NCBI GenBank assembly: GCA_016186175.1
Contig: JACPMB010000003.1
Span: 8,508-72,507 of the forward strand
Direction: 5' to 3'
Source: Candidatus Peregrinibacteria bacterium
GTDB lineage: Bacteria; Patescibacteriota; Gracilibacteria; Peribacterales; Peribacteraceae
Length of the DNA: 64,000 bases
The notes under the pieces: generated by a model
The model's database searches: none
Told to the model about the DNA's origin: nothing
What the model saw: the letters and a program-made list of their open reading frames with translations, nothing else
Program-made: the position numbers and the translations under genes
Shown here: positions 7,021 through 50,329 of the stretch, piece after piece
How positions within the stretch are numbered: the first letter of the stretch is position 1
Layout of the letters: every line of letters starts with the position of its first letter

Positions 7021-7076
7021 GTCCCTCGTACGCTAGCCCTTCGACTACGCTCGGGGCGAGCTACTCGGGACGACAC
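7021..7076 (-). repeat. Nested REP-like element (GTCGTCCCGAGTAGC family enclosing CCCGAGCGTAGTCGAAGGG)
   Basis: GTCCCTCGTACG...CCCTTCGACTACGCTCGGGG...CTACTCGGGACGAC; related ends at 14529, 27322, 41322 and 58778. Confidence 0.75.
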
Positions 7077-21314: not shown

Positions 21315-21374
21315 CACGTAAAGACGCGTCAGCGGCTTTACGTGTCACGTGGCGGCGGAGCCGCTTTACGTGAC
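21315..21374. repeat. Two CACGTAAAG-family hairpin repeats
   Basis: The reverse complement of 21344-21374 (GTCACGTAAAGCGGCTCCGCCGCCACGTGAC) matches 49471-49501, upstream of a GIY-YIG gene. Confidence 0.8.
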
Positions 21375-21423
21375 CACGATGTTGACGCGTCCACGTGGCG
21401 CCGCCATCTGCTAAGATTCCGGC

Positions 21424-22533
21424 ATGACGTTTGCGATCGGGCTCCTCACGGGCTTTCTCATTGGAGGGGTGATCGCGTACTGGCTCGGACGGCGTTCCAC
21501 CTCAGACGCCGCAACTATCGCCGAGTCGCTCACGGACAAAGTGTTTTCACGGCAGGCAGAAAAAATTCTGCAGCTCGCGGAGGCCAAGCTTTCGGGAAAG
21601 AAGGACGTGATTGATGGAACGTTGAAGGCGATGAAGGGAGACCTGAACCGCGTGGAAGACCTGATGCGCAAAATCGGCGACGGCAATGTGCAGGTTGGTA
21701 CGCGATTGGATAACGCAGCAGTCGCCATTAAAGAGCTGTCCGAAACCACCGGCGGCATTCGCAATGCCCTGAGCAGCAACAATCTGCGCGGGAATTGGGG
21801 CGAACGCATGGCGGAAGACGTATTGCGTCTCTCCGGCCTCATCGAAGGCATCAATTTCATCAAGCAAACGAAGCTCGAAACCGGATCGAAGCCCGACTTC
21901 ACGTTCATGCTGCCGCAGAAGCTTAAACTGAACATGGACGTGAAGTTCCCCTTCAACAACTACCAGCTCTATGTCGAAGCAAAGACCGACCGGGACAAGG
22001 AGGAACATAAGGAGAAGTTCCTGAAGGACGTCCGCAAGCGCGTGAAGGAAGTGCAGACGCGCGATTACATCAACCCGGAGGACGGCACCGTAGACTACGT
22101 GCTGCTCTTTGTCCCAAACGAGCAGATTTTCTCCTTCATCAACGAGATTGACCGCACCGTGATCGACGAAGCGATGCGCGGGAAGACGATCCTCTGCTCC
22201 CCGTTGAGCCTATACGCGATCCTCGCGGTCATCCGGCAGTCCATTGATAGCTTCAGCATGGAGAGCAAGTCGCAGGAAATGCTCACGATCTTCGGCGCGT
22301 TCAGGCAGCAATGGGAGAAATTCAAAGATCAGATGGAAACCGTGAAGGAGCGCTTCGAGTCCGTCCACAAGGGATACGAGGAGCTCACGGGAGCGCGTGA
22401 GCGGCAGCTCGACCGGCAGCTTCAGAAGATCGACGAGATTCGCTCAGAGAAAGCTTTTGAGAGTCCGATCGAAGCGGCGGGGGAGAAGGCCAAAATGAAA
22501 GCGTTGAGCGAAAAGCGCGTATCCATGGAGTGA
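21424..22533 (+). CDS. rmuC: DNA recombination protein RmuC
   Basis: RGNWGE, PDF..LP, DVKFP, DYVLLFVPNE; N-terminal TM segment. Confidence 0.93.
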   Translation: MTFAIGLLTGFLIGGVIAYWLGRRSTSDAATIAESLTDKVFSRQAEKILQLAEAKLSGKKDVIDGTLKAMKGDLNRVEDLMRKIGDGNVQVGTRLDNAAVAIKELSETTGGIRNALSSNNLRGNWGERMAEDVLRLSGLIEGINFIKQTKLETGSKPDFTFMLPQKLKLNMDVKFPFNNYQLYVEAKTDRDKEEHKEKFLKDVRKRVKEVQTRDYINPEDGTVDYVLLFVPNEQIFSFINEIDRTVIDEAMRGKTILCSPLSLYAILAVIRQSIDSFSMESKSQEMLTIFGAFRQQWEKFKDQMETVKERFESVHKGYEELTGARERQLDRQLQKIDEIRSEKAFESPIEAAGEKAKMKALSEKRVSME

Positions 22534-22569: not shown

Positions 22570-24858
22570 ATGATGACGCACATCTCCGATCCCATCCTCG
22601 GCCCTCTCAACGAGCCGCAACGCCAGGCGGCCATTCATCATGCAGGCCCGGCGCTCATTCTGGCCGGCGCCGGGAGCGGGAAGACGCGCGCGCTGACGCA
22701 CAGGATCGCACGATTGATGAAGGACGGCGTGCAACCATGGCAAATCCTCGCGGTGACCTTCACCAACAAGGCGGCGAACGAAATGAAGGAGCGCATCAAG
22801 AATCTTCTTCATATTGTCGAAGGATCGTCACACCTCGACTTCGCTCGGGATGACCGGCAATCGCTCGCGCGATTGCCGGTCATGGGCACGTTCCACTCGA
22901 TCTGCGCACGAATCTTGAGGAAGGACATCGAGCGTCTGGGCCGCAATCGCAATTTCGTGATTTACGACACCGATGATCAGGAAAAACTGATGAAGGAAGT
23001 CCTCAAAGAACTGCAAATTGACGAAAACACGCTCAAGCCGAGGCCCGCACTCGGCTACATCGGACGATTCAAGAGCGAAGCAATGAACGCGAAGGACGCG
23101 CTGAAGGATGCGACCACTGAACGCATGATCCAGGTAATCCGGGCATACGAAACCTACGACAAGATGCTCCGCGCGGCCAATGCCGTGGACTTCGACGATC
23201 TGATTCTGGAAACCGTCCGGCTGTTCAACGAAGTGCCGGAGGTGCTCAGCCGCTACCAGGAAACGTGGCGGTTCCTCCATGTGGACGAGTACCAGGACAC
23301 GAACCACGCGCAGTACCTGTTCATCTCCCAACTCGCGCAGAAGTACCGCAACCTCTGCGTCATCGGAGATCCCGACCAGTCCATCTACGCCTTCCGCGGC
23401 GCCGACGTACGAAACATCCTGGAATTCGAGCAGGAATACCCTGATGCGCTGAGGATCGCGCTTGAGCAAAACTACCGCAGCACGCAGGTCATACTGGACG
23501 CATCCAACGCCGTGATCAAATCCAACCCGCGGCGCCCGAAGAAGAATATGTGGACCAAGCGGAAGGGCGGGCCCACCGTGATCGTTCATGAAGTGCGGGA
23601 TGAGAGGAAGGAAGCGGAAGAAGCAGCCAAAGCAGCGCAGTTTTTGAAGAAAGACGGGGTGCCGCTCAACCACCAAGTGGTTCTGTACCGCACCAACGCG
23701 CAGTCTAGACTGTTCGAAGAAGCCTGCATGCGCGCAGGCATTCCCTACCGCATCGTCGGCGGCACGAAGTTCTACACGCGGAGGGAAGTGAAGGACGTTC
23801 TCGCGTACTTGTATGTGATTCTGAATCCCGCGGACACGATTTCGCTGCTCAGAATCTTGAATGTTCCCGCGCGAAAGATCGGCGAGGCCACACTCGGACA
23901 TATTCAGGCGTTTGCGTCCCAGGAAAGTCTCACGCTGTGGGATGCATTGATCCGCGCAAACGACATCGTCGAACTGAATGACGGGGTGAAGACGCGCATC
24001 GAGAAATTTATCTCCATTGTGAAGCAATTGCGCACCCGCTCCTCCGCTCTGGTGGTTTCTGAGCTTGCCGCCCAGCTCCTGGATGCAGTGGGACTGGAGA
24101 AATGGCTGCGGGACGACCTCGATGAGGGCGAGGAACGCTGGCAGAACGTGCAGGAATTGCTCACTGTCATGCACAAGTACGATCAGCTGGACCCCCAGAC
24201 ATCGCTGACGAGTTTTTTGGAGGAGGTCGCGCTGATTTCGGAGGTGGATAAGCTGACTTCCATACGCGACGACGCGCTCACGCTGATGACGCTGCACCTC
24301 TGCAAGGGTCTGGAGTTCGAACACGTGATGATAGCGGGATGCGAAGAAGGCATCTTCCCGCACAGCAGTTCCATGTTCGACAAAGAGCAGCTGGAGGAGG
24401 AACGACGGCTGATGTACGTTGGCATGACGCGGGCCAGGACGCATTTGAGAATTTTCTTCACGCGCAGCAGGCAGTTATGGGGCAATACACAAGCCAATGC
24501 GCCGAGCCGCTTCATCGCCGACCTGCCCTCGGAAGCCGTCGAGCGGCGCAGCGACGAGCTTCTCTCGGCTTTCGCATGGGCAACGGAGAGCGGACGACTG
24601 AAAGCCGCAGAGTCGCATACGGATATCCAACCATATCGCCAGCGTGCTGAATTGAATGTGGAGTTCAATCAAGACCTGGAGATCGCGGATGGGATGAATC
24701 AAGACGTACCCGAGCTGCGGAAAGGCTCCCGCGTTCGGCATCCGTCATTCGGCGAGGGAACAGTCCTCAGCAAGCGCGGCGACGTCGCGACAATCGTATT
24801 CGATTCGGGGAAGAAGAAGGACTTCGCGCTGAGCATCGCGCCGTTGCAAGTGTTGTAG
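22570..24858 (+). CDS. pcrA: ATP-dependent DNA helicase PcrA/UvrD
   Basis: AGAGSGKT, VDEYQDTN, GDPDQSIY, LEQNYRS, KGLEF, EERRLMYVGMTRA and C-terminal Tudor-like HPSFGEG. Confidence 0.96.
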   Translation: MMTHISDPILGPLNEPQRQAAIHHAGPALILAGAGSGKTRALTHRIARLMKDGVQPWQILAVTFTNKAANEMKERIKNLLHIVEGSSHLDFARDDRQSLARLPVMGTFHSICARILRKDIERLGRNRNFVIYDTDDQEKLMKEVLKELQIDENTLKPRPALGYIGRFKSEAMNAKDALKDATTERMIQVIRAYETYDKMLRAANAVDFDDLILETVRLFNEVPEVLSRYQETWRFLHVDEYQDTNHAQYLFISQLAQKYRNLCVIGDPDQSIYAFRGADVRNILEFEQEYPDALRIALEQNYRSTQVILDASNAVIKSNPRRPKKNMWTKRKGGPTVIVHEVRDERKEAEEAAKAAQFLKKDGVPLNHQVVLYRTNAQSRLFEEACMRAGIPYRIVGGTKFYTRREVKDVLAYLYVILNPADTISLLRILNVPARKIGEATLGHIQAFASQESLTLWDALIRANDIVELNDGVKTRIEKFISIVKQLRTRSSALVVSELAAQLLDAVGLEKWLRDDLDEGEERWQNVQELLTVMHKYDQLDPQTSLTSFLEEVALISEVDKLTSIRDDALTLMTLHLCKGLEFEHVMIAGCEEGIFPHSSSMFDKEQLEEERRLMYVGMTRARTHLRIFFTRSRQLWGNTQANAPSRFIADLPSEAVERRSDELLSAFAWATESGRLKAAESHTDIQPYRQRAELNVEFNQDLEIADGMNQDVPELRKGSRVRHPSFGEGTVLSKRGDVATIVFDSGKKKDFALSIAPLQVL

Positions 24859-48245: not shown

Positions 48246-48506
48246 TCAGTTTTTCGTCGGATGCTTACCTACAGCAAGATTTTCTTTCTTCATCTTGCTC
48301 CATGTCTTCACCTGCGCTTCACGACGTCTGGCTTCAACAAGAGTAGAAAATTCTTCGTGATAGATGATTTTCACTGGCCGTCGCGATCGTGTGTATTTAG
48401 CACCTTTGCCTATATTGTGTCTCGCCTCTCGAGCTTTCAGATCAATACAAGAACCTGAATACAAAGACGCATCGACGCACCGTGCAAGATAGAAATAGTA
48501 AGGCAT
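48246..48506 (-). CDS. Stand-alone GIY-YIG nuclease (UPF0213/YhbQ-like), copy 1
   Basis: YFYLARC..SLYSG...R..RHN.GKGAKYTRSRRPV...ARRREAQVK. Confidence 0.92.
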   Translation of the reverse strand: MPYYFYLARCVDASLYSGSCIDLKAREARHNIGKGAKYTRSRRPVKIIYHEEFSTLVEARRREAQVKTWSKMKKENLAVGKHPTKN

Positions 48507-48532
48507 TGGTTTATGAGTATATCTGATTGATT

Positions 48533-48665
48533 GCCCTCGGCTCGCTCCGCTCGCTCGGGGCACTCGCCTCGGCCACGCGAAAGAATGGTCGGAGCCCGAG
48601 CGAAGCCGAGGGCGTAGACCACGAGCGAGGCCCGAGTTGCGCAGCAACGAGGGCCGAGTCGAGTG
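48533..48665. repeat. Cluster of CCCGAGCG...(T/C)CGAGGG hairpin repeats upstream of GIY-YIG copy 1
   Basis: GCCCTCGGCTCGCTCCGCTCGCTCGGGGC, GCCCGAGCGAAGCCGAGGGC and nested CCACGAGCGA...CGAGTCGAGTGG. Confidence 0.8.
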
Positions 48666-48752
48666 GCAGAACAACGGGGTCTGACACCAAAAAGGTTGAG
48701 GCCCAGACAAGGTTTTTGAGAGTCGGGTTTTAGGGATGACAGGGCAAGACGG

Positions 48753-49016
48753 TCACCTCTTTTCTGATGCTCTGAGAAAGATTACGGTCGTTACAAGCTC
48801 GATCAATTTTCTTCCATGAGCATCATCTTCAAATCCCCCCATTATTGATATGAGACTTCTCCTCGATGAATCTTGTTGAAGAGTAGTTGCAGCTTTTTGG
48901 AGAACTGTGATGTCATCTGGAGTGAGAGCGGCTTCTACAAAACGTGGATGGCTTTTCGCCAGAGAACCAATATCCAAGCCTGTTGTGTAATCAAATCCCT
49001 CATCCATAACTTTCAT
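48753..49016 (-). CDS. Small hypothetical protein between GIY-YIG genes
   Basis: AT-rich ORF with TACAAT immediately upstream. Confidence 0.55.
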   Translation of the reverse strand: MKVMDEGFDYTTGLDIGSLAKSHPRFVEAALTPDDITVLQKAATTLQQDSSRRSLISIMGGFEDDAHGRKLIELVTTVIFLRASEKR

Positions 49017-49029
49017 ATTGTACCATTTT

Positions 49030-49314
49030 CTAGGCAATCTTAGAAACTGAGGAATGTGAATTGAATTTGAAATGATGTGCAAGTTGTTTCTTTACAAAGC
49101 GATGGCCAGCACCGCTTTTCAGAAATTTCTCTCGGCCAAGGGCATCCATCTTCTCCATGTATGCCTCGTAGTAGATGAGTTTCCAGGGTTCTCCATGAGA
49201 GGTGGAAATATTCTTGCCGTCATTATGAGCATCGAGACGTTCTTCAACATTCGTCGTGTAGCCGATATACCATTGTTTGTCAGTCTCGCTTTCGAGGAGG
49301 TAAACGAAATACAT
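49030..49314 (-). CDS. Stand-alone GIY-YIG nuclease (SLX1-like group), copy 2
   Basis: YFVYLL...WYIGYT...RLDAHNDG...PWKLIYYEAY...REKFLKSG. Confidence 0.93.
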   Translation of the reverse strand: MYFVYLLESETDKQWYIGYTTNVEERLDAHNDGKNISTSHGEPWKLIYYEAYMEKMDALGREKFLKSGAGHRFVKKQLAHHFKFNSHSSVSKIA

Positions 49315-49332
49315 AGCAGATTATTGTAGCAG

Positions 49333-49544
49333 CCCCGTAAAGGCGCTGCGCGCCCACGGGGACACGGCCCGTAAAAAGCTGCGGCTTCACGGGCCATGTA
49401 AAAAAGCTTCTCGTGCGTTTATATGTTTTTCTCGTCGCAAGTTGGTGGCTGCGCCACGTGACTGCGCGCAGGGACGTAAAGCGGCTGCGCCGCCACGTCC
49501 CACGTAAAACAGCTGCTCGCTTCGCTGCGCGCAGTTTTACGTGG
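49333..49544. repeat. Four CGTAAA...ACG hairpin repeats between GIY-YIG copy 2 and tRNA-Glu
   Basis: Units at 49333-49361, 49366-49395, 49471-49501 and 49500-49544, with covarying outer stems. Confidence 0.85.
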
Positions 49545-49616
49545 CAGCCCCACGGGGAATCGAACCCCGGTTAACGGATTGAAAACCCGCTGTCCTAACC
49601 GCTAGACGATGGGGCC
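49542..49616 (-). tRNA. tRNA-Glu(TTC)
   Basis: GGCCCCATCGTCTAGCGGTTAGGAC...TTTTCAA...GGTTCGATTCCCCGTGGGGCTGCCA; cloverleaf with encoded CCA. Confidence 0.96.
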
Positions 49617-49817
49617 GTGATCGTGGGAGGGCCACCTAGCGGTGTCCCTCCCACGGACCCACCCTTCCCTTTCGGCGGTGTCGCTCCAGCCGGGCAAAGC
49701 CCGGCTTCGCGACAATTTTTTTGATTAGTCCGAGAAAGAAGAATGCGTCCGTGAAAGAACGACTTTGTCATCATAATGCATCAGGATGCAGAAAAATACT
49801 GCCGCTATACTTTTTCC

Positions 49818-50279
49818 ATGCCATATTATTTCTACCTCGCCCGCTGCAGAGACGGATCGCTCTACGCTGGAACATGCATGGACCCCGCGACGCGGCAGGC
49901 GAAGCACAATGACGGGACGGGCGCGAAGTACACGCGCTCCCGCCGGCCGGTGAAGATTATCTATCACGAAGCATGTGCGACACTCGGAGAAGCACGACGG
50001 CGGGAGGCGGAAATCAAGCGCTGGAGAAAACGCGACAAAGAGGAGCTCGCGGCATCAACGCGACGCGCGGCGGAGTATCAGAGATTGCTTCCGAGCAGCT
50101 GCCTTGAGAAAACATCAGCGAGGCGGCAAGCAAGAGAGCGTTCGCTCGGCGCCAGACATCTGGAACCTCTGCAAAATGATACGCATCACCAAAACATCAC
50201 GATGGTAAGGAACCTCTCAAAAATCGCTTCATGCGAGGAAGCGAGCCAAAATTTCGCGAGGCGTATCGGCATACGTTGA
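49818..50279 (+). CDS. Stand-alone GIY-YIG nuclease, copy 3 (paralog of copy 1), with C-terminal run-on into a MITE
   Basis: MPYYFYLARC...GAKYTRSRRPVKIIYHE...ARRREAEIK; TATACT 6 nt before ATG. Confidence 0.88.
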   Translation: MPYYFYLARCRDGSLYAGTCMDPATRQAKHNDGTGAKYTRSRRPVKIIYHEACATLGEARRREAEIKRWRKRDKEELAASTRRAAEYQRLLPSSCLEKTSARRQARERSLGARHLEPLQNDTHHQNITMVRNLSKIASCEEASQNFARRIGIR

Positions 50280-50329
50280 GCGAAATTTTGGCGCAGCTGA
50301 CGAAGCAGGAGGCATTTTTCAGAGGTTCC
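50162..50329. mobile_element. MITE-like element with GGAACCTCT termini
   Basis: Left ends at 50162 and 50209, right end GCATTTTTCAGAGGTTCC identical to 11780-11797; internal GCCAAAATTTCGC/GCGAAATTTTGGC inverted repeat. Confidence 0.7.

Follow-up and report, generated by a model that had tools for sequence, protein, structure and literature searches.

A hairpin array paired with a minimal GIY-YIG nuclease gene at the 3' end of tRNA-Glu in a Candidatus Peribacteria bacterium: a possible selfish element of an undescribed kind

RESULTS

Three GIY-YIG genes surround a tRNA-Glu gene

The locus lies within a 64,000-nucleotide stretch of DNA (the window) from a Candidatus Peribacteria (CPR) bacterium. 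A tRNA-Glu(UUC) gene (anticodon ttc; 49542-49616, minus strand; ARAGORN, Rfam tRNA score of 60.7 bits) is flanked by three single-domain GIY-YIG genes, with genuine hairpins in between. Its encoded CCA (49542-49544) serves both as the anchor of an adjoining hairpin array and as the opening three bases of the first hairpin. The three genes, already noticed in an earlier reading of the letters alone (the sequence-only reading), were each confirmed by a match to PF01541: copy 1 (48246-48506, minus strand, 86 aa; E = 1.1e-13), copy 2 (49030-49314, minus strand, 94 aa; E = 4.7e-16), and copy 3 (49818-50279, plus strand, domain at residues 3-73; E = 2.4e-13), with scores of 51.7, 59.3, and 50.6 bits, respectively, against a cut-off of 22.6. 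Copies 1 and 3, both of clade 2, are 70% identical, whereas copy 1 shares 31% identity with copy 2, which therefore belongs, as that reading had it, to a different clade (subclade 3b).

Copies 1 and 2 have the size and single-domain form of stand-alone UPF0213/Slx1-like proteins. The UPF0213 structures 1zg2 and 1ywl matched copy 1 (E = 1e-13), and 1zg2 matched copy 2 (E = 1.9e-7). No second Pfam domain scored above cut-off, save a weak T5orf172 overlap in copy 2, and the chain ends 10 to 20 residues beyond the GIY-YIG domain, with no joined DNA-binding region. Residues Y5, Y16, R26, and E62 of copy 2, which we take to be the catalytic Tyr, Tyr, Arg, and Glu, are invariant among 33 aligned relatives and also among 6 close ones; judged by these residues, the copy 2 enzyme looks active.

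The true C terminus of copy 3 is uncertain, because its open frame continues into a 121-nt MITE-like element (50209-50329; TIRs GGAACCTCTCAAAAAT and ATTTTTCAGAGGTTCC). The core word of this repeat is present in 12 element copies genome-wide, one of which adjoins a GIY-YIG gene, and the element is unrelated to the GIY-YIG hairpins. Divergent placement like that of copy 3 beside tRNA-Glu(TTC) was also seen in two related genomes (G001 and G003). An ORF of 87 to 109 aa (48753-49082, minus strand) matched no Pfam or NCBIfam family and lies outside the conserved cassette, as it is missing at the locus of a further relative, G008, with which DNA homology ends at 49071.

A structured array lies between tRNA-Glu and copy 2

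The interval from tRNA-Glu to copy 2 (49315-49541, minus strand) is taken up by a hairpin array, here called B-type, whose modules recur in relatives. Folding of this 230-nt spacer beat 200 of 200 shuffles (z = -4.4), and the four hairpins that had been described before copy 2, three of them with a fixed core and covarying outer stems, were found again. A long CCA..TGG hairpin at 49500-49544 takes in the CCA of the tRNA. B modules are located at 49471-49501, 49366-49395, and 49333-49361; they share the core CGTAAA..CACG and carry the outer stems GGGA/TCCC, GGCC/GGCC, and CCCC/GGGG, respectively. The array also holds a mini-hairpin (49446-49460) that ends in GCCA. On the tRNA strand, the module reads N4-CGTG-(5-bp stem, GNA triloop)-TTTACG-N4.

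The B module is also carried, with covarying stems, by the loci of relatives. A perfect 4/4 outer stem was present in 60 of 188 distinct B modules, compared to a mean of 11 and a maximum of 21 with shuffled partners, and the loops were GAA (28), GCA (8), GTA (3), and GGA (3). Relative to the gene, 50 modules were sense and 37 antisense, some of them after the stop codon.

B modules occur at three loci in this genome. One further array, of about 190 nt and without a gene, follows tRNA-Glu(CTC) outside the window (G000:C45:75554 onward). The other is a solo array at 21315-21423 (plus strand) that comprises two modules plus CACGTGGCGCCGCCA and ends in TGCTAAGAT, 6 nt before an ATG; the recurrence noted earlier at 21315-21374 was thus a full second array. 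A -10-like box closes this solo array directly 5' of a 369-aa ORF at 21424, which we read as probably RmuC-like. Elsewhere in the same genome, a GIY-YIG copy on contig C47 has hairpins on both sides of the gene.

Searches with Rfam 15 covariance models left the hairpin arrays unmatched, recovering only tRNA, tmRNA, and RNase P along with weak chance hits on tRNAs, and a sigma-70 scan of the array yielded neither a promoter nor a terminator. Three familiar identities were considered and rejected: a CRISPR array was ruled out, as there is no constant repeat with spacers; an intrinsic terminator was ruled out by the absence of a U-tract; and for a group I intron with endonuclease, TIGR01453 gave only a sub-threshold match (16 bits versus a 56-bit cut-off).

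A -10-like box precedes the nuclease genes at a fixed offset

A -10-like box, TACAAT (TGCTACAAT; 49323-49328, minus strand), is positioned 8 nt 5' of the copy 2 ATG. The same 8-nt spacer separates a TANNNT hexamer from the start codon in 30 of 54 loci of clades 3-14, with other offsets accounting for 0 to 7 loci each. This motif suggests that copy 2 has its own promoter and a leaderless mRNA, in which case the hairpins would lie outside the mRNA and act as DNA.

The copy 2 type of gene follows tRNAs across genomes

Small GIY-YIG loci were collected from 41 related genomes, and a same-strand tRNA was found to end 6 to 355 nt upstream in 38 of the 114, where about 0.8% would be expected by chance (36 tRNAs in 904 kb). 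Clades were defined by average linkage, as single linkage had merged 107 of 108 proteins into one group. The tRNA-following loci amounted to 0/27 in clade 1, 4/26 in clade 2, and 30/55 in clades 3-14, the last having 1 to 15 family matches per 1-Mb genome. Six of the 114 genes were short, being cut before the normal end.

Subclade 3b, to which copy 2 belongs, was surveyed through the 80 best loci from species-representative genomes, with a locus search built on the 6 closest sequences. In many genomes the gene lies 55 to 377 nt downstream of a same-strand tRNA gene: 43 of these best 80 loci follow a tRNA (Peribacteria, 30 of 34; at least 13 tRNA kinds). The spacer opens with CCA|CGTAAA in 36 of the 43 and with a near variant in 5 more. 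Among Verrucomicrobia, a same-strand tRNA was upstream in 0 of 20 loci, and hairpins flank the gene on both sides (module positions read off a list), with one module about 50 nt before the ATG; in Peribacteria they are only upstream of the gene, as inverted pairs. Five Verrucomicrobia genomes had 5 to 8 copies each, most of them grouped on the same contig as the GIY-YIG locus.

Comparison of individual sites showed the tRNA-Glu(TTC) position to hold a full cassette in this genome (G000) and a 45-nt solo in G001, and to be empty in G003 and G004. Between this locus and that of G008, DNA homology extends from the tRNA across the array to the end of the gene and then stops. In G015, paralogous cassettes after tRNA-Met and tRNA-Arg are 81% identical over a stretch that starts at about the CCA and runs nearly to the end of the gene, and locus L084 has tandem tRNA-Ile 3' halves. 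Synteny based on a neighboring membrane-protein gene gave four orthologous loci, of which only that of G004 keeps tRNA-Glu adjacent; the GGDEF neighbor gave one distant match.

Hairpin family follows nuclease subclade

The first 12 nt after the CCA were 60% identical for pairs with at least 50% protein identity from different genomes and tRNAs (n = 25), compared to 25% for distant paralogues within one genome (n = 19), a difference reached in 0 of 4,999 permutations. A rank Mantel test of protein versus leader identity over all pairs was not significant, as 176 of 999 permutations reached the observed value. Within G015, different subclades carry different hairpin families, while the B module stays with its subclade in Verrucomicrobia, where no tRNA is nearby. 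Because other subclades carry other CCA-anchored families, we conclude that hairpin family follows nuclease subclade across genomes and even phyla, rather than host or tRNA, which bears out the link between hairpin family and nuclease clade raised by the sequence-only reading. Copy 1 is an exception to one family per clade, as this clade 2 gene sits behind a hairpin element of another family, here called type 9.

Type-9 elements and the hairpins near copies 1 and 3

Cognate hairpins had been envisaged for these nucleases, and only copy 2 proved to have a family of them; clade 2 has neither conserved flanks (26 loci) nor a hairpin family of its own. Hairpins are present before copy 1 (48525-48675; z = -2.9, a fold equaled by 3 of 200 shuffles), yet they are a decayed solo element of the family paired with a different subclade, clade 9. 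This palindromic type-9 element (48533-48666, minus strand), with the layout CCACTCGACTCG-hairpin-CTCGCTCGTGG ... GGCCGAGGCGAGTG ... GAGCG.., aligns with elements after nine tRNAs. It abuts a relic of the tRNA-Glu 3' end (48664-48680, minus strand) that ends in CTGCCA and agrees at 13 of 17 bases, a level reached by 31 matches among the roughly 1.8 million positions of the whole genome, counting both strands. Between tRNA-Glu and copy 3 there are likewise hairpins (49622-49655 and 49688-49706, by folding), but these form no repeat family, the first being unique in the window and the second having one similar copy in the genome. Hairpin density near clade 2 genes was 2.3 per kb against a background of 1.75, a comparison confounded by the mostly coding nature of the "far" regions. 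We conclude that copies 1 and 3 are an ordinary paralogue, at about one per genome among the genes listed.

Near-identical type-9 solos follow 9 of the 36 tRNAs of this genome, tandem and nested copies occur, and 9 of the 11 exact-pattern copies are at tRNA ends. The cognate clade 9 nuclease gene was not found in this assembly, which is 82% complete. More broadly, about 20 of the 36 tRNAs have, by reading, a CCA-anchored palindromic trailer of some kind, mostly without a nuclease gene. In the family as a whole, the type-9 module was present in 39 of 61 genomes. A count of repeats against gene presence, as had been proposed, came out in two parts: all 18 genomes with a clade 9 gene have the module, and so do 21 of the 43 where the gene was not found, these assemblies being incomplete and breaking at such repeats. 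The module is 100 to 460 nt upstream on the same strand in 15 of 21 clade 9 genes, one of which is preceded by tmRNA. Type-9 inserts had a stem of at least 4 bp in 15 of 26 cases, compared to 0.9 in shuffles. The hairpin structure of both B and type-9 modules is under selection.

Distant recurrences of the copy 1 type had been placed at 7037-7056 and 22833-22854 (both plus strand), and motif matches confirmed them, although only in a short form, CC-TTCGACT-N-CGCTC-GG. The first is a type-9/family-A hairpin, CCC-TTCGACTACGCTC-GGGG; the second, followed by an 11-bp perfect hairpin, is inside a loop of pcrA. Since this loop varies in length among eight same-genus genomes, insertion of the hairpin into pcrA is plausible. 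Under a strict definition, short family-A hairpins numbered 12 in the genome and 0 to 1 in three simulated sequences, while plain GNA-triloop hairpins with a perfect stem of at least 7 bp numbered 28 and 7 to 11, respectively, a mild enrichment; internal loops define the families better than the plain GNA triloop does.

DISCUSSION

A recurrent hairpin-nuclease unit

In the unit that emerges from these comparisons, hairpin modules form a structured array, and a minimal (80 to 95 aa) UPF0213/Slx1-type GIY-YIG gene comes after it. The internal loop of a module is conserved, whereas its outer and inner stems vary; a GNA triloop caps most of the inner stems, and modules often form inverted pairs. 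The array starts at the CCA that a tRNA or tmRNA gene encodes, and the nuclease-hairpin pair stays constant while tRNA, host genome, and even phylum change. Solo arrays occupy other tRNA ends, and sister species differ at orthologous sites, which can be filled, hold a solo, or be empty. One such unit is formed by copy 2 and its B-type array.

These cassettes look like an undescribed kind of selfish genetic element. Our leading reading of the locus, to which we give slightly less than an even chance, is a pile-up of small selfish hairpin-nuclease cassettes at the 3' end of tRNA-Glu(UUC), in which the older solo element now before copy 1 would have been pushed downstream along with the relic of a tRNA end. 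The nuclease may recognize the single-stranded or cruciform form of its cognate hairpin and nick there or close by, and host repair would then copy the cassette, or the array alone, to other CCA-ended sites. GIY-YIG enzymes hydrolyze DNA and, to our knowledge, do not join strands, so such transfer must lean on host repair. In function this would resemble a REP/RAYT system or a homing endonuclease, the enzyme here being of the GIY-YIG type. More doubtful is the general proposal of a new mobile-element class, widespread in CPR and with relatives in Verrucomicrobia, in which a bare GIY-YIG nuclease recognizes a hairpin of its own family and copies itself (autonomous) or the array alone (nonautonomous) to any tRNA or tmRNA gene, at its CCA end.

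Several observations count against a selfish reading. The protein is an 80-aa single domain with no evident sequence-reading part, copy numbers are low (three loci for B modules here), and 21 of the 43 genomes in which no clade 9 gene was found nevertheless have type-9 modules. Cis-regulatory hairpins would also produce a linkage of hairpin and gene, the rank Mantel test was not significant, and the leaderless promoter is a motif call.

Alternative explanations

The hairpins could instead be cis-acting expression elements of the nuclease gene, either an operator or insulator, perhaps bound by the nuclease for autoregulation, or tRNA 3' trailer structures that stop or process read-through; the cassette might still be selfish, with hairpins that take no part in movement and solo arrays that are remnants of gene loss. 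We regard this as a serious possibility, albeit not a probable one. Hairpins always lie within about 40 to 380 nt upstream of the start codon, the Verrucomicrobia module precedes the ATG closely with no upstream tRNA, copies are few and mostly local to the gene, and solo arrays persist without a cognate gene. The solo B array before an unrelated ORF, with its terminal -10-like box, fits an expression role as well. However, the occurrence of modules in both orientations and after the stop codon would be unusual for an RNA leader, the array has no terminator-like U-tract, and a genuine -10 box would place the hairpins outside the mRNA. Nine near-identical solos after nine tRNAs, along with tandem and nested copies, are also hard to produce by gene loss alone.

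That the hairpins belong to the host and have no connection with the GIY-YIG genes is improbable; they would then be either tRNA-trailer or terminator structures of a generic kind or REP-like repeats that some other enzyme moves, and the nucleases would merely gather in permissive tRNA flanks. The many palindromic trailers without a nuclease gene would be expected under this explanation, as would the presence of the type-9 module in nearly two-thirds of the family (39 of 61 genomes), and the genome does encode one HUH Y1 transposase-like domain. That domain, however, is in frame inside leuS and is unflanked by these hairpins. Hairpin family tracks nuclease subclade rather than host genome or tRNA, as seen both in G015 and in Verrucomicrobia, where the B module accompanies its subclade with no tRNA nearby, and the type-9 module is present in every genome with a clade 9 gene and precedes most of these genes on the same strand.

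Slightly more improbable still is a reading of the three genes as ordinary UPF0213/Slx1-like nucleases of repair or RNA metabolism whose position at tRNA-Glu is meaningless. This reading agrees with clade 2, at about one gene per genome among those listed, with unconserved flanks and a hairpin density near background, and with the Slx1-like fusions and operons with COG4123 and TrmH-like methyltransferases described in the accessible part of PMC1564403. It misfits copy 2 and clades 3-14, which have 1 to 15 matches per 1-Mb genome, tRNA sites that vary and can be filled or empty, some truncated genes, and hairpins specific to the clade.

Relation to known systems

REP/RAYT systems comprise an HUH-Y1 enzyme whose gene is flanked by cognate REPs and tens to hundreds of intergenic copies with a GTAG-type 5' tetranucleotide. 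The present hairpins resemble REPs and REPINs in being short and imperfect, with variable stems and conserved unpaired bases, and often in inverted pairs, and the cassettes resemble RAYTs in that one family goes with each enzyme clade and gene-less copies occur elsewhere; at the C47 copy and in Verrucomicrobia the small nuclease gene also has its own hairpins on either side, whereas in Peribacteria they are upstream only. They differ in the associated enzyme, which is GIY-YIG and not HUH-Y1 (the sole Y1_Tnp match in the genome, inside leuS, is on another contig), in copy number (a few to a few dozen, not hundreds), in being mostly CCA-anchored at tRNA or tmRNA genes, in lacking a GTAG-type 5' tetranucleotide, and in the solos of genomes where no cognate gene was found. 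The REP/RAYT-like system put forward by the sequence-only reading is therefore supported in part: the layout and the clade-hairpin link hold, while dispersal on the REP scale and strict dependence on the nuclease do not.

Seg and I-TevI-type enzymes have a DNA-binding region after the catalytic domain, and we know of no hairpin family associated with Seg genes. The cassettes are like Seg genes in that a GIY-YIG gene lies between genes, beside tRNAs, is present or absent among relatives, and would be spread by repair (as proposed here), and unlike Seg and I-TevI enzymes in having a bare 80- to 95-aa domain and a hairpin family. SegB of T4-like phages, a free-standing GIY-YIG homing endonuclease, lies in a tRNA gene cluster, according to the accessible part of PMC13096335. 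Integrative elements at tRNA and tmRNA 3' ends share the same target and leave copies of tRNA 3' ends; in contrast to them, the unit here is about 0.5 kb, has no integrase, and has its junction at the CCA and not inside the tRNA.

The proteins belong to the same family as the UPF0213 structures (PDB 1zg2 and 1ywl) and share their minimal single domain. Bacterial genomes very commonly encode minimal GIY-YIG proteins (UPF0213, Slx1-like), for which we know of no established role. The stand-alone Slx1-like/UPF0213 form has been described as the minimal GIY-YIG form, linked to RNA and tRNA methyltransferases; the full text of that paper contains "tRNA" three times, never concerning gene position, and its accessible part mentions neither post-tRNA placement nor flanking hairpins (PMC1564403). 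Our literature search found no description of hairpin-led GIY-YIG cassettes at tRNA ends.

Some subclades of minimal GIY-YIG nucleases hereby gain a testable role, which pairs them with a short structured DNA partner of defined form and places them at a defined genomic address, the tRNA CCA end. If the nuclease does read the hairpin, the REP/RAYT lifestyle would have been invented a second time, independently and on another catalytic fold, and the cassettes would be a source of very small structure-specific nucleases. For annotation, many cassettes are at contig ends, so the repeats appear to break CPR assemblies, and they also appear to extend open frames into false C-terminal tails.

Small GIY-YIG genes at tRNA-Glu and in related genomes

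In the genome that contains the window (G000; 904 kb in 48 contigs, 55% G+C, 82% complete; window at C45:8508-72507), three genes matching the PF01541 profile surround tRNA-Glu(UUC), which lies between them on the minus strand (49542-49616). Copy 1 (48246-48506, minus strand, E 1.1e-13) and copy 3 (49818-50279, plus strand, E 2.4e-13) share 70% identity and fall into one protein cluster, clade 2. Copy 2 (49030-49314, minus strand, E 4.7e-16) is 31% identical to copy 1 and clusters separately in subclade 3b, so that its assignment to a different clade in the sequence-only reading is upheld. All three consist of the catalytic domain alone, and the closest solved structures are the UPF0213 proteins 1zg2 and 1ywl. 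Beyond the window, two further small copies and one UvrC-like match were found; the copy on contig C43 (clade 5) lies 157 nt downstream of tRNA-Ala, and the copy on C47 (clade 1) has no tRNA nearby. The open frame of copy 3 is lengthened by a 121-nt MITE-like element (50209-50329) with terminal inverted repeats GGAACCTCTCAAAAAT and ATTTTTCAGAGGTTCC and an inner 22-nt inverted repeat; a partial end also occurs at 50162-50178, and the core word is present in 12 element copies genome-wide. tRNA-Glu(TTC) occurs a second time, on a contig of 2 kb (C24:234-308), with different flanks and no copy-2-type array; this copy may reflect strain variation or mis-binning of the contig.

Of 41 related genomes, 40 contain PF01541 matches, with between 1 and 15 in a genome of ~1 Mb. 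From these, 114 small-gene loci were gathered and oriented, and their proteins were clustered into clades. A same-strand tRNA lies upstream in 38 of the 114, where the chance of such a neighbor at a random site is about 0.8% (36 tRNAs in 904 kb). Clades 3 to 14, which include copy 2 and the C43 copy, account for 30 of 55 loci with a tRNA end 6 to 355 nt upstream, and a tRNA also precedes 4 of 6 unclustered genes with a shortened reading frame. Clade 2, to which copies 1 and 3 belong, comprises 26 loci, with roughly one listed member in each genome; four lie downstream of a tRNA and three divergently upstream of tRNA-Glu(TTC) (G000 and its relatives G001 and G003). None of the 27 clade 1 loci, the C47 copy among them, adjoins a tRNA; this clade is multi-copy, with long, ragged C-terminal frames. 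At least one further locus (L060, G004) has a clade 9 gene directly behind tmRNA, and several more begin at a CCA whose tRNA ARAGORN missed owing to a truncated flank. At one locus (L055, G002), RNase P RNA adjoins tRNA-Thr and a GIY-YIG cassette, that is, a hairpin array with its nuclease gene.

A scan of species-representative genomes returned 399 stretches encoding relatives of copy 2. Among the best 80 of these, 43 lie behind a same-strand tRNA at 55 to 377 nt, including 30 of 34 loci from Peribacteria and 0 of 20 from Verrucomicrobia. The 43 tRNA-led spacers start with CGTAAA directly after CCA in 36 cases, with a near variant in 5 and differently in 2.

The hairpin family follows the nuclease subclade

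The spacer between tRNA-Glu and copy 2 is 227 nt long. In tRNA-strand orientation, a long hairpin (CCACGTAAAAC...GTTTTACGTGG) takes the CCA of the tRNA itself as the beginning of its 5' arm. There are also three modules (B modules) that share the layout N4-CGTG-(5-bp stem, GCA loop)-TTTACG-N4 but differ in their outer and inner stems, and a mini-hairpin with GCCA at its 3' end. Its predicted fold was more stable than 200 of 200 shuffles (z -4.4), and the description of this family made from the sequence alone, a fixed core within varying stems, was correct. Among 188 distinct B modules from the best 80 of 399 relatives and the window's own locus, the 4-nt outer arms are fully complementary in 60, compared with a mean of 11 and a maximum of 21 when arms were re-dealt; judged by this pairing, B modules are selected as structures.

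Within a subclade, the same kind of structured array directly follows CCA while the tRNA varies. The subclade 3b leader CGTAAAA... is found after Glu-TTC, Glu-CTC, Met, and Arg-CCT. Clade 10 leaders consist of TTCGTCG, a hairpin with differing stems, and CTCCTCATGGCAAGCCAT (3 of 3 loci); clade 9 has TTCGACTCG, a hairpin, and CTCGCTCATGG..., clade 5 (the C43 copy) has CACTTCGCTCGC..., and clade 4 has TCCGGCTTCG.... When the first 12 nt past CCA were compared across 31 loci, leader identity was 60% for proteins at least 50% identical from different genomes and behind different tRNAs (n = 25) and 25% for distant paralogues sharing a genome (n = 19), an excess matched by 0 of 4,999 label permutations. 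A rank Mantel test over all pairs of the 31 loci was not significant (176 of 999), as most pairs are simply unrelated. By the measure of these leaders, the spacer goes with the nuclease gene and not with the tRNA, and the proposal that hairpin family tracks nuclease clade is borne out.

In the Verrucomicrobia loci inspected, one module lies ~50 nt before the ATG and another past the stop codon on the opposite strand, which leaves the gene between hairpins in inverted orientation. Five Verrucomicrobia genomes (2 to 4.3 Mb) have a degenerate B module just 5 to 8 times each, mostly clustered on the GIY-YIG contig; the B hairpin is no dispersed repeat there, and its pairing with the subclade 3b nuclease is therefore old and tight. 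Four clade 1 loci of same-genus genomes (L021, L022, L028, and L035) have downstream arrays of hairpins with 8- to 9-bp stems, ~60-nt spacing, and GGA, GAA, or TCC triloops, and five clade 1 loci share a GTTCCA-N8-TGGAAC hairpin ~130 nt upstream of the start.

Arrays without a nuclease gene

Solo arrays occur for both families. Some 190 nt of the copy-2 array follow tRNA-Glu(CUC) near the end of C45, the contig of the window, with no nuclease gene, and the first arm is also present after tRNA-Thr(UGU) on C38. The far-off recurrence of this hairpin type noted in the sequence-only reading proved to be a complete array (21315-21423), ending in TGCTAAGAT 6 nt before the ATG of a 369-aa ORF that we read as probably RmuC-like; the array may supply the promoter of this ORF. 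It occupies a divergent spacer beside an rpsO-like ORF.

The hairpins beside copy 1 had been proposed as its possible cognate family, a view that did not hold. The stretch 48533-48666 aligns with a ~150-nt element found behind 9 of 36 tRNAs in G000 (Ser twice, Val three times, Leu, Arg twice, and Phe), which consists of two inverted modules, CC(A/C)TTCGACTCG-hairpin-CTCGCTCA(T/G)GG, around a central part. In relatives this type-9 element is the array that accompanies clade 9 genes; copy 1 belongs to clade 2, and its hairpins are a decayed clade-9-type element. Directly before the decayed element is a 13/17 match to the tRNA-Glu 3' end, ending in CTGCCA, of a grade found just 31 times genome-wide on both strands. 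We infer that the element is an older insertion that once abutted tRNA-Glu; the arriving copy-2 cassette would have displaced it downstream along with the tRNA-end copy.

The recurrences of the copy-1 hairpin type at 7037-7056 and in pcrA (22833-22854) are indeed the same module, with the inner hairpin absent. Across G000, this short form (stem-GAGCGNAGCGA-stem) is represented by ~12 hairpins that fit it strictly and some 40 that match more loosely; five of these hairpins surround the C47 clade 1 gene. In pcrA (22833-22884), the short motif and a perfect 11-bp hairpin (GACCGGCAATCG..CGATTGCCGGTC) are translated in frame within a PcrA loop of varying length (different in all 8 same-genus genomes compared). 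Hairpins of a similar GGCAATCGCGATTGCC type lie behind tRNA-Trp and tRNA-Thr.

The exact type-9 module was found in 39 of 61 family genomes, at 1 to 12 copies each, and a reversed control pattern gave zero matches in the 61. Stems of at least 4 bp are present in 15 of 26 distinct inserts, compared with 0.9 after shuffling. Clade 9 genes (at least 55% identity to that of locus L081) number 21 in 18 genomes. Counting repeats against gene presence, as had been suggested, gave a divided result: the module is present in all 18 gene-bearing genomes, on the same strand 100 to 460 nt upstream of 15 of the 21 genes, but also in 21 of the 43 genomes where no clade 9 gene was found (73 and 51 copies, respectively; 11 in G000). 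In a sample of 30 modules, 20 begin precisely at the CCA of a called tRNA, and one has a downstream GIY-like ORF by a rough pattern. Over the 61 genomes, the module and gene counts show far more solo type-9 arrays than full cassettes, and show these arrays persisting where the cognate subclade is lacking; assembly incompleteness tempers both points without removing them.

Signs of gain and loss at tRNA ends

DNA similarity to the corresponding G008 locus begins at the tRNA, spans the array and breaks off at 49071, near the gene end, with 75 to 79% identity between the copy-2 proteins; on this alignment, the ORF at 48753-49082 is outside the conserved unit. In G015, cassettes after tRNA-Met and tRNA-Arg(CCT) are 81% identical over 403 nt, from roughly the CCA to the vicinity of the gene end. 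What stands at the orthologous tRNA-Glu(TTC) site varies: G000 has a full cassette, G001 a solo B element of 45 nt, and G003 and G004 neither, with a different gene following the tRNA. At L084 (G013), two tandem copies of the tRNA-Ile(tat) 3' half, from anticodon arm to CCA, separate that tRNA from a clade 6 gene, a pattern resembling the traces of repeated insertion at a tRNA end; the same 20-nt palindrome stands before each half.

Shortened genes make up 6 of the 114 loci, and many small GIY-YIG genes lie at contig ends. A hairpin with a 15- to 16-bp stem (loop GGAGCGTAGCGGA) is found at four G000 contig ends (C17:127-169, C45:32-76, C46:56659-56703, and C47:85590-85634), and this repeat evidently breaks the assembly. 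The commonest 10-mers in G000, at ~100 copies each, belong to a GGAAAGT/GGAAAGTG-type tandem repeat.

Putative promoter position and possible role of the hairpins

No sigma-70-type promoter or terminator-like site was found in the copy-2 array. Copy 2 has a -10-like box, TGCTACAAT (49323-49328), 8 nt before its ATG. Of 54 loci in clades 3 to 14, 30 have a TANNNT hexamer at this distance, with 0 to 7 at every other offset. In clades 1 and 2, the box is 6 nt before the ATG (12 and 10 of 26 loci, respectively). No Shine-Dalgarno sequence was evident at GIY-YIG starts across loci L001 to L206, where the fixed-distance box without one suggests leaderless mRNAs. Copy 2 thus probably has its own promoter and a leaderless mRNA, in which case the hairpins would not be part of the nuclease mRNA, although any read-through from the tRNA would include them. 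Among 87 well-formed B modules, 50 are in sense and 37 in antisense orientation to the gene, and loops include GAA (28), GCA (8), GTA (3), and GGA (3). GNA loops are known from DNA mini-hairpins of very high stability, GCGAAGC for example. Because of both orientations, the GNA loop, and the box downstream of the array, we lean towards a DNA-level role over a regulatory RNA leader.

Overall, the conserved unit is a clade-specific hairpin array with a minimal GIY-YIG gene, anchored at the CCA of tRNA or tmRNA genes in Peribacteria and further CPR lineages; it has derivatives that lack the gene, and tRNA sites are polymorphic between species. We infer that the hairpins, as DNA, are what their own nuclease acts on, and that this would promote copying of the unit. 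A purely regulatory role for the hairpins stays a live alternative, favored by low copy numbers, by solo arrays that lack a cognate gene, and by the solo array ahead of another ORF; the orientations, loops, and box position weigh against its RNA-leader form. The analogy with REP/RAYT systems drawn in the sequence-only reading applies to the architecture; the enzyme fold (GIY-YIG, not HUH) and the dispersal are unlike.

Full-text literature, mostly outside subscription journals, yielded no bacterial stand-alone GIY-YIG genes with hairpin repeats or behind tRNAs, and a prior description is possible; the matches were mitochondrial introns, phage Seg genes, and a 2006 GIY-YIG superfamily survey. 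In the passages available from that survey, prokaryotic Slx1-like proteins are the minimal stand-alone form, with fusions or operons involving COG4123 and TrmH-like methyltransferases, and those passages do not mention tRNA-gene adjacency or hairpins (PMC1564403). The sole HUH Y1 transposase-like domain in G000 (PF01797, E 1.8e-17; C26:26881-27213) lies outside the window, in frame between LeuRS segments of a leucyl-tRNA synthetase gene, with the HUH motif HVHLLV.
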